Shown: piece after piece, positions 48,001-51,000 of the stretch
Numbering within the stretch: the stretch's first letter is position 1
Layout of the letters: every line of letters begins with the position of its first letter
Assembly: GCF_003018255.1 (NCBI RefSeq)
Contig: NZ_CP027440.1
Reading direction: 5' to 3' (one strand)
From: Escherichia coli
GTDB taxonomy: Bacteria > Pseudomonadota > Gammaproteobacteria > Enterobacterales > Enterobacteriaceae
DNA: 64,000 bases
Program-made: the position numbers

Positions 48001-51000
48001 GAACAGGCGTAGATGGCGGAAACATCACCAACTCGAACGTCCCGTACCGTCTGATGAACTCTTGCGGTGGTTTTCTCAGTCGCTATGGCAGCTACAGTAC
48101 CGCTCAAATCAGTGCCGCAATGAGTTATATGTTCGGTGCCAATGATGGCAACAGCCCGGATGATATCGCCAATACGAAACTGGTCGTTATGTTCGGAAAT
48201 AACCCGGCAGAAACCCGGATGAGCGGCGGTGGTGTCACTTACTACGTCGAGCAAGCCCGAGAACGTTCAAACGCACGCATGATCGTCATCGATCCACGTT
48301 ATAACGACACAGCTGCCGGGCGTGAAGATGAATGGCTGCCAATTCGCCCAGGCACCGATGGCGCACTGGCCTGTGCGATTGCCTGGGTACTGATTACTGA
48401 AAACATGGTCGATCAGCCATTTCTCGACAAATATTGTGTTGGTTACGATGAAAAAACGCTGCCCGCCAACGCACCACGTAACGCGCATTATAAAGCCTAT
48501 ATTCTGGGCGAAGGGCCTGACGGCATAGCTAAAACGCCGGAATGGGCAGCAAAAATCACCAGCATCCCGGCAGAAAAAATTATCCAGTTGGCACGAGAGA
48601 TCGGTTCAGCAAAACCTGCTTATATTTGTCAGGGTTGGGGGCCACAACGACACTCCAACGGCGAACAAACGTCCCGCGCTATTGCCATGCTTTCCGTTCT
48701 CACCGGTAACGTCGGCATAAACGGCGGCAACTCAGGTGTACGCGAAGGTAGCTGGGATCTGGGGGTAGAATGGTTCCCGATGCTTGAGAATCCTGTTAAA
48801 ACGCAGATTTCCGTCTTTACATGGACAGATGCCATCGACCACGGTACGGAAATGACCGCGACCCGTGATGGTGTTCGTGGAAAAGAAAAACTGGATGTCC
48901 CCATCAAGTTTTTATGGTGCTACGCCAGTAACACATTGATCAATCAACATGGCGACATCAATCACACCCATGAGGTGCTTCAGGATGACAGCAAGTGCGA
49001 GATGATTGTTGGCATTGACCACTTCATGACTGCCTCGGCTAAGTATTGCGATATCCTGTTGCCCGACCTGATGCCAACAGAGCAAGAAGACCTTATCTCT
49101 CACGAATCTGCCGGGAATATGGGCTATGTGATCCTCGCCCAACCCGCAACCTCAGCAAAATTTGAACGCAAACCCATCTACTGGATGCTGAGCGAAGTTG
49201 CCAAACGCTTAGGACCAGACGTTTATCAAACCTTTACTGAAGGCCGCAGTCAGCACGAATGGATCAAATATCTCCATGCGAAAACGAAGGAACGTAACCC
49301 TGAGATGCCCGACTACGAGGAGATGAAAACGACCGGGATCTTTAAGAAAAAATGCCCGGAAGAACACTACGTCGCTTTCCGCGCATTCCGTGAAGATCCA
49401 CAGGCAAACCCGTTGAAAACACCTTCGGGGAAAATCGAAATTTATTCTGAACGACTGGCGACGATTGCGGATACCTGGGAATTGAAAAAAGATGAAATTA
49501 TTCATCCCCTTCCTGCGTATACCCCAGGTTTTGATGGCTGGGACGATCCCCTGCGGAAAACCTATCCACTGCAGCTAACGGGCTTCCACTACAAAGCGCG
49601 TACCCACTCCAGCTACGGCAATATTGATGTGTTACAGCAGGCCTGCCCACAAGAGGTGTGGATCAACCCTATTGATGCTCAGGCACGCGGTATCCGTCAT
49701 GGCGATACCGTGCGGGTATTTAACAATAATGGAGAAATGCTGATTGCCGCAAAAGTGACTCCGCGTATTCTGCCTGGCGTTACCGCCATCGGGCAAGGTG
49801 CGTGGCTTAAAGCGGATATGTTTGGTGACCGGGTCGATCACGGCGGCAGTATCAATATTCTGACCTCTCACCGCCCTTCACCGCTGGCAAAGGGAAACCC
49901 GTCGCACAGCAATCTTGTCCAGATCGAAAAGGTTTAAGGAGTAGCCCATGACCACACAATATGGATTTTTTATCGATTCCAGCCGCTGTACTGGCTGTAA
50001 AACCTGCGAACTGGCGTGCAAAGATTTTAAAGTTGGTTACGTATCGTTTAAAATCAATTAGATAGCCCGTCATTTCTGCGCTCACACGTCCCAACATTGA
50101 AAAACATGCAAAGCTTTGTAAGCCGATGCAAAGCTTTGTGTGTCTCACTTTTGTCCCAATACCAATCCGAATCCACCCTTTGTCATCATTGAGAAATGGC
50201 AAGGAAGAAAAGGATGTTACTGCACGATTTGACAAATCCGCCAGAGCTATCGCATACTGACCGCACTAGAACTTCAAAGCGGTCATCCGCACCCGATAGC
50301 TTTGCGGCTTTTTTATGCCTGCAATTTGGCATAGTCACATCCGTACAAAGGTCGGGTGGAGAGGCGTAATACAATACCCGCAAGGGGAATATGCCCGGAG
50401 CATCTTTGAAGGCTCTAGTTGACACCCGATCACCAGCCACTAACTGGTGATTGCTAACTAAAACTTCAAAGGAGGTCATCATGACCAGTCAACTCATCCC
50501 CGTATTCAACGGCACTATCGACAACGAAACAACTCTTCTAGTTAACGCTCGTGATCTACACTCTTTTCTTGGTGTGGGCAGAATGTTCGCGCACTGGGTT
50601 AAAGAGCGCATTGCTGAATATGGATTCGTTGAAAATCAAGATTTTGTTATTGCTTGCCAAAATTGGCAAGCAAAAGGTAGAGGCGGTCACAACCGCAAGG
50701 AATACCACCTCACCCTCGACACAGCCAAAGAGCTTGCGATGGTTGAACGTAACGAAAAAGGCCGCCAGATACGCCGATACTTCATCGAGTGCGAAAAGAA
50801 ACTTCGCAACATTCAGCCAGTACAAACTGAGCAGCAATTCACAGCAGAAGACATCATCCTGCTCTGCTACGTTCAACTCTGGATGGAAAAAGCACAACAA
50901 CTCAGTAAGCAGCTATACCCCGTCATGAGAGAACTGAATTCTGATTACTACGGGAAACTGTTTGATCTGGCCTACGAGACTCGTCATATAACCAACCGGA

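Follow-up and report, generated by a model that had tools for sequence, protein, structure and literature searches.

Paired 14-bp direct repeats at a prophage attR in Escherichia coli ynfG are probably excisionase-binding units of a P22-type attachment site arm

Background

Recombination directionality factors (RDFs) recognise direct repeats arranged in tandem at intervals of one helical turn, and in phage lambda the excisionase (Xis) fills a row of such sites, X1-X1.5-X2 (PMC7498355). The attachment site of phage P22, attP, is functional at a length of about 260 bp (PMC4111918). Here we describe a pair of 14-bp direct repeats, ATGCAAAGCTTTGT, within a 64,000 nt stretch of the Escherichia coli contig NZ_CP027440.1 (the window), where they lie just inside the junction between a prophage of the Shiga toxin (Stx) type and the host gene ynfG. 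Most likely they are an ordinary feature of a known kind, belonging to the well-studied class that includes lambda X1/X2 and the P22 attP. It is close to certain that the segment holding them is part of an attachment-site arm. On the basis of sequence comparison, we give a probability of roughly 0.6 to the more specific proposal that the two 14-mers are the strong units of a predicted Xis-binding array in a P22-type attP P arm, preserved in attR.

Integration into ynfG by phages of the 75/02 Stx and POCJ13 type has already been published (PMC5447701); no dissection of the att site of a ynfG phage was found in the literature searched.

Results and discussion

Position and form of the repeats

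When the whole window was searched for ATGCAAAGCTTTGT, two exact copies were found, bearing out the original prediction of identical 14-bp direct repeats at 50106-50139:

50106-50119, + strand: repeat copy 1, ATGCAAAGCTTTGT, an X1-like unit whose P22 equivalent is ATGCAAAGCCTTGC
50126-50139, + strand: repeat copy 2, ATGCAAAGCTTTGT, an X2-like unit whose P22 equivalent is ATGCAAAGATTTGT

The 20 bp by which the copies had been said to be separated is correct as the spacing from start to start, the gap between them being only 6 bp (AAGCCG), and the distance from the junction to the start of copy 1, previously put at about 75 bp, was measured as 74 bp. This pair is the sole direct repeat of at least 14 nt within 60 nt in the entire window; approximately 0.015 such repeats per window would be expected by chance, and two of 300 windows generated by a second-order Markov simulation contained one. 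The only other near-match to the 14-mer in the window, at 60055-60068 on the - strand and with two mismatches, is at the level expected by chance. Each copy holds a 10-bp palindrome, CAAAGCTTTG, hence the two copies also constitute an inverted repeat.

Two small open reading frames extending over the repeats (50126-50260 on the + strand, 44 aa; 49852-50235 on the - strand, 127 aa, crossing the junction) were without support. An Rfam scan of the repeats produced a sole match, to mir-19, which is spurious, scoring 26 bits against a threshold of 50.

The junction with ynfG

The sequence to the left of the repeats comprises E. coli ynfF and codons 1-28 of ynfG, the match to the intact K-12 gene ending at 50032. 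To the right, the + strand carries phage genes encoding an AntA/AntB antirepressor, TraR, a DUF4752 protein and an Ea22-like protein; these converge with late genes on the - strand, including that for a 2794-aa LPD38 protein. As the genes lead away from the junction and converge with the late genes, this is attR, the end of a lambdoid prophage that is distal to int. The same junction is present in 47 complete E. coli genomes. In JNE120442, which has an intact Stx1a prophage of approximately 59 kb, the order at the opposite end is xis, int and the remainder of ynfG. Comparison of attR, attL and attB defines a common core of 7 bp:

50026-50032, no strand assigned: crossover core TTTAAAG, common to attP and attB, at which the host ynfG sequence ends by comparison with K-12 ynfG

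The attL of a related prophage reads CAACTTTAAAGATCTTGG, whilst the circular genome of Shigella phage 75/02 Stx, in which the P arm is joined directly to the int-side arm, reads ...GAGCAACAA up to the join and CTTTAAAGTTGG beyond it. E. coli 2014C-3307 and phage 75/02 Stx have the P arm with 100% identity, the record of the latter containing both 14-mers exactly. The junction is therefore attR, the int-distal arm, of a ynfG-integrating Stx-type phage, with phage 75/02 Stx and POCJ13 as relatives.

A P22-type P arm

The following parts could be recognised on the phage side of this attR:

50033-50219, + strand: P arm of attP, specific to ynfG-integrating phages
50050-50064, + strand: candidate integration host factor (IHF) site AAAATCAATTAGATA, picked out by eye, with one mismatch to WATCAANNNNTTR, between the core and the proximal arm site
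50088-50093, + strand: proximal arm-type integrase (Int) site GTCCCA, a hexamer found twice in the int-side arm of the relatives and of P22
50098-50144, + strand: array with a 10-bp period, TGAAAAAC / TGCAAAGC / TGTAAGCC / TGCAAAGC / TGTGTGTC, the proposed Xis region
50142-50158, + strand: distal pair of arm-type sites, GTCTCA (degenerate, 50142-50147) and GTCCCA (50153-50158), 11 bp apart

The sequence AAAATCAATTAGATA is probably an IHF site. Judged from the sequence, the two 14-mers are the strongest units of the longer phased array at 50098-50144.

The arm has a sharp outer limit. The 187 bp from 50033 to 50219 are matched only by phage 75/02 Stx, PhiR5_2 and POCJ13, whereas from 50220 onwards the sequence, comprising sRNA-Xcc1 and the leader of the antirepressor gene ant, is 99% identical in many Stx phages with other integrases, including those of the wrbA type. 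Hence the repeats are part of the integration cassette rather than the antirepressor module. The same repeats are found in P22 with gtrABC downstream in place of ant, so that they go with int and xis.

The P arm of the P22 attP can be aligned without gaps to approximately 50045-50161 of the window, the paired motif there being ATGCAAAGCCTTGC / ATGCAAAGATTTGT. The two arms read:

P22: CTGCGCTCACAC-GTCCCA-tcttcgaaagac-ATGCAAAGCCTTGC-aaaccg-ATGCAAAGATTTGT-at-GTCCCA-ttttt-GTCCCA
window: CTGCGCTCACAC-GTCCCA-acattgaaaaac-ATGCAAAGCTTTGT-aagccg-ATGCAAAGCTTTGT-gt-GTCTCA-ctttt-GTCCCA

The 14-mers are thus flanked by GTCCCA or GTCTCA boxes. The hexamer GTCCCA, found in the window at 50088-50093 and 50153-50158, recurs on the other arm, as TGTCCCAAATTTGTCCCAC within the 3' end of int in the relatives; this int-side arm carries TGTCCCAAAT(A/T)TGTCCCAC, in the ynfG phages and P22 alike. 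Being common to both arms in both phages, GTCCCA can be identified as the arm-type Int motif. APSE-7, the Int of which is 67% identical, retains it on both arms, and Erwinia phage Eho59, with an Int that is 56% identical, has TGACAC in its place on each of the two arms. The 14-mer is distributed differently: none was found near int in the related prophage L004 even with up to three mismatches allowed. The search for the same repeat at the far end of the element, suggested with the original prediction, therefore came back empty, although the repeats are indeed present in homologous elements. This combination, a sequence kept in homologues and absent from the other arm, is what is expected of excisionase sites, which are confined to one arm.

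The cognate proteins are similarly related. In relatives with an identical arm, Int is 71% identical to that of P22 and 71-77% identical to the Int proteins of the P22 group. Their Xis is intact, at 123 aa, and over its first 72 aa, corresponding to the DNA-binding domain, is 82% identical to P22 Xis; it matches the Pfam domain HTH_17 with 36.2 bits, relative to a cut-off of 27. No relative was found when the PDB was searched with the Xis sequence. In P22 the arm sites, taken from the outermost one on the int side to the outermost one of the P arm, span about 237 bp; this fits the length of the functional attP and includes the bases homologous to the repeats.

The locus resembles the P22 attP in homologous DNA, GTCCCA arm sites, a spacing of 54 bp, a paired ATGCAAAG at a 20-bp period and, as seen in relatives with an identical arm, homologous Int and Xis proteins. 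It differs in its core and target, which in P22 is the thrW tRNA gene and here is TTTAAAG within the protein-coding ynfG; in its middle distal arm site, which is GTCCCA at both positions of the distal pair in P22 and degenerate (GTCTCA) here; in its two copies, which here are identical and more palindromic; and in its carrier, a Sepvirinae Stx-type podovirus rather than a member of Lederbergvirus. A P22-type int/xis/att cassette has thus been retargeted from a tRNA gene to a protein-coding gene and transferred as a unit to a different phage group.

The P arm of P22 contains arm-type Int sites together with a region protected by Xis (reported by Smith-Mungo et al. 1994 and Mattis et al. 2008), and the Xis footprint of Mattis et al. 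reportedly comprises one main site, on this arm. Apart from the segment of about 42 bp that holds the repeats, no space on the arm is known to be unassigned.

Conservation of the arm across the phage family

An IMG/VR scan was anchored on CTGCGCTCACACGTCCCA, which surrounds the proximal GTCCCA and excludes the repeats, so the invariance of this anchor in the arms retrieved is uninformative. The scan returned 115 arms, 54 of them distinct over the 92 bp aligned. These 54 align without any gap, and in all of them, as in APSE-7, the proximal site lies at a constant 54 bp from the distal pair. The segment between the arm sites, about 40-42 bp, falls into 13 sequence types at the 80% identity level, all of which keep a 10-bp-phased pattern of roughly AAAA-s-WTGnAAAG repeated. 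Averaged over the 13 types, the self-identity of this central segment reaches 0.54 when it is shifted by 10 and 0.55 when it is shifted by 20, other shifts giving approximately 0.27, and in every type between six and 14 of 14 positions are identical to the position 20 bp further on. Across the 54 arms, columns A26-A29, A36-A37, A46, A56 and T62 show no variation, and conservation is 90% or higher at A31, T32, A35 and T52.

Direct repeats phased at 10 and 20 bp are a hallmark of RDF arrays, and the ATGCAAAGCTTTGT pair consists of helically phased tandem direct repeats on a single arm only. The lambda X1-X1.5-X2 sites are alike in being direct repeats of approximately 13-14 bp with a 20-bp (two-turn) period and a weaker middle site, and in lying on the int-distal arm between arm-type Int sites; those of lambda act only in excision (PMC7498355). 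The two systems differ in the size of Xis (72 aa in lambda, 116-123 aa here) and in that no Fis site is evident in the present arm. In sequence, the sites resemble each other by eye only, lambda X2 containing ATGCAAA.

By taking int ends and P arms from the same IMG/VR contigs, Xis proteins could be paired with their sites. The helix-turn-helix region of Xis (…ISRPTA(T/I)NWI(R/K)(T/S)GRL…) is near-constant across the four central-segment types paired with it, which implies that any recognition element they share can only be a short degenerate motif.

One P-arm type in this set, GATAGAAATTGGTCGAAAGGCATATAAAAGCC, invariably has a xis pseudogene, interrupted by an internal stop, about 200 bp away, with no int between them (L053, L054, L066, L079, L082, L092, L109 and L113). 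These loci look like decayed remnants from which int has been deleted.

Predicted role in excision

The preceding sections concern observed properties of the segment: its location, homology, architecture and conservation. Binding by Xis we infer from its position, its confinement to one arm, its phasing and the reported location of the P22 Xis footprint on this arm. The original prediction was correct to place the repeats in the recombination apparatus at the integration junction; neither of the functions it offered for them, arm-type Int site or repressor operator, stood up to the comparisons described here.

Read inwards, attR begins with the 5' end of ynfG and the core TTTAAAG, followed by the probable IHF site, one GTCCCA Int site, about 42 bp carrying both 14-mers in a 10-bp-phased WTGnAAAG array, and then two arm-type Int sites. 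Upon induction, several monomers or dimers of a P22-like winged-helix Xis would bind cooperatively to the array; the bound Xis would bend the arm and so help Int to bridge the arm sites and core of attR. The expected result is that excision between attL and attR would be favoured, and re-integration disfavoured.

Several observations weigh against this proposal. The window itself contains neither int nor xis, as the prophage runs past its end. Near-identical Xis DNA-binding domains accompany quite different central sequences. In addition, double substitutions between the two commonest types (C-G to U-A, at two pairs) preserve a hairpin that the copies can form and not the direct repeat, which points to an additional or alternative constraint, either dyad symmetry or RNA structure.

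Nothing in these results challenges current understanding. They permit precise annotation of attR, and by extension attP, in ynfG-integrating phages of the Stx1 and Stx2 types, including the core, the Int sites and the probable Xis sites. The control of excision bears on the induction and spread of Shiga toxin phages in E. coli and Shigella.

Alternative explanations

In phage lambda, the tI/sib element forms a hairpin on the far side of the att core from int; it belongs to the int-sense strand, and integration parts it from int. Here, the near-palindromic nature of the copies allows 50104-50120 to pair with 50127-50143, forming 17 pairs:

50104-50143, + strand: potential 17-bp hairpin encompassing both copies, detected by RNA folding and a terminator scan; the 5' side has a run of A, the 3' side a T-rich stretch

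At the edge of attP, the segment might function mainly as an RNA hairpin or an intrinsic terminator; this is unlikely, and such a function would not be mutually exclusive with Xis binding. The hairpin might be a tI/sib-like element, ending or destabilising int transcripts that cross attP in the free phage and parted from int by integration, or an opposite-strand terminator halting transcription into int or the host; in either case the direct repeat would be a by-product of a long inverted repeat. The + (int-sense) strand has a folding energy of -22.7 kcal/mol (z -5.1), the P22 equivalent -17.3 (z -3.8), and the terminator scan flagged 50104-50143 as terminator-like. The fold of the - strand is weaker (-16.7, z -1.6), with A-C mismatches in the stem. 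In phage L, the homologous stretch is annotated, by in silico prediction, as a terminator on the opposite strand, with the stem followed directly by TTTTT, and it is on the - strand alone that the U tract directly adjoins the stem; the T run of the + strand is 5 nt away, inside the spacer between arm sites, and the stem is AT-rich. Four sequence types, the commonest among them, retain 15-17 of the 17 pairs, and in type B the stem is 18 bp long (-25.7, z -6.7) though the direct identity is only eight of 14; the C-G to U-A switches at two pairs are those between types A and B. However, these covariations represent very few evolutionary events, with one slid control giving an equal count, and G-U pairs are not in excess over A-C mismatches. 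Furthermore, the hairpin is missing from nine of the 13 types despite their identical spacing and phasing, whereas the 10/20-bp direct periodicity is universal, and the A run is invariant even in types without a hairpin.

The hairpin is a real potential of the sequence, which may have an added function in a subgroup, and is not a shared property of the whole family. A more elaborate version, which we regard as somewhat more doubtful still, is that in the ATGCAAAG/ATGTAAAG subgroup the Xis landing pad has been shaped by compensatory substitutions into a hairpin of 17-18 bp that also terminates transcription in both directions or acts on int as a retroregulator in the manner of sib. If this were true, a single 40-bp segment would have two roles, as a DNA array bound by protein and as an RNA signal, the latter being physically uncoupled from int upon integration. 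The hairpin is like lambda tI/sib in its position across the core, its int-sense strand and its parting from int by integration; unlike tI/sib, it lies inside attP, between arm-type sites and not beyond them, and is missing from most types of the arm.

It is improbable that the segment is simply an intrinsically bent spacer of phased A tracts, or an IHF or Fis site for looping of the arm, with the 14-mers unread by any phage protein. The AAA(G) tracts repeated every 10 bp are the best-conserved columns, and ATGCAAAGCTTTG fits the IHF consensus, by eye, at seven of nine specified positions. Nevertheless, A31, T32, T52 and T62, which are outside the A tracts, are also at least 90% conserved, and an exact duplication of 14 bp exceeds what bending needs. 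In P22, no IHF sites are known beyond the two that have been mapped, which lie close to the core, one to each arm.

Being direct, closely spaced and within an att arm, the repeats might also be arm-type sites for the N-terminal domain of Int; this is very improbable, as the 14-mer is missing from the int-side arm with up to three mismatches allowed, and it is instead GTCCCA that is present on both arms and that changes on both in Eho59. Least probable is the suggestion that the repeats are phage repressor operators for a promoter of the downstream sRNA and antirepressor genes since, although the near-palindromic copies are of the kind bound by dimeric helix-turn-helix repressors and the antirepressor genes lie only about 350 bp downstream, there is no promoter-like site at 50090-50160 (the nearest, at 50229-50258, is in a different mosaic module), the ant/sRNA module is 99% identical in phages that lack the repeats, and P22 retains them ahead of unrelated genes, its gtr promoter having been mapped further on, so that the repeats follow int/xis and not the genes downstream.

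Other features of the prophage and its insertion site

In the attP of 75/02 Stx (the join of L005 and L006), the core is a perfect 14-bp palindrome, CAACTTTAAAGTTG, with TTTAAA at its centre, the right half of which is found at 50026-50035 of the window. Integration disrupts ynfG: at attR its first 28 codons are followed by nine phage codons and a TAG at 50060-50062 (window 49949-50062), whilst at attL (L004 22802-23353) an annotated GTG start supplied by the phage gives an N-terminally truncated YnfG without the first cysteine cluster. The host ynfG sequence immediately left of the core, at 50017-50032 (TGCAAAGATTTTAAAG), is 81% identical to repeat copy 1 and its flank, and the TGCAAAGATTT within it corresponds to 11 nt of the second P22 repeat. 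The resemblance may be coincidental, or the bacterial side of attR may carry an extra Xis-like site.

In E. coli 2014C-3307 (NZ_CP027368.1; L001, L002), the prophage with its left end in ynfG extends for approximately 65 kb and ends at wrbA, where the integrase is a different one and is accompanied by xisR; this arrangement implies recombination or inversion between two Stx-type prophages. The 2794-aa open reading frame on the - strand of the window (54439-62823), which relatives have under the annotation of an LPD38-domain protein, one of them with a frameshift, is a very large gene of the kind typical of short-tailed Stx phages.

The module adjoining the P arm is more remarkable than the repeats themselves. 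The Rfam family sRNA-Xcc1 is matched at 50350-50439 with 65.4 bits, the gathering score being 53. In its second hairpin, the loop CTTTGAAG (50404-50411) is the exact complement of two boxes. The downstream one, CTTCAAAG (50464-50471), is immediately 5' of the Shine-Dalgarno sequence of the antirepressor gene, the ATG of ant being at 50482; the upstream one, identical to it, is at 50272-50279 and is followed by a terminator-like hairpin, a stem of CCGCA...TGCGG and T6 at 50287-50315. A promoter-like sequence, TTGACA-18-CATACT, matching at 10 of 12 positions, is found at 50229-50258, just inside the mosaic boundary at 50220 and upstream of the first box. Together, the promoter-like site, the stem and the sRNA look like a self-contained regulatory cassette ahead of ant.

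The antisense logic by which the c4 RNA controls ant in phages P1 and P7 (cited in PMC7313666) is mirrored by the sRNA-Xcc1 boxes. The Rfam C4 model did not match at this module, and no such role for sRNA-Xcc1 in the control of ant was found in the literature searched. Among 12 distinct loop contexts in IMG/VR, the box of 7-8 nt differs and the sites co-vary, giving three-way covariation: the exact complement is present upstream in all 12, and downstream, next to the Shine-Dalgarno sequence, in 11, the remaining locus being truncated. In the minimum-energy fold of 50255-50490, the loop box is paired with the leader box.

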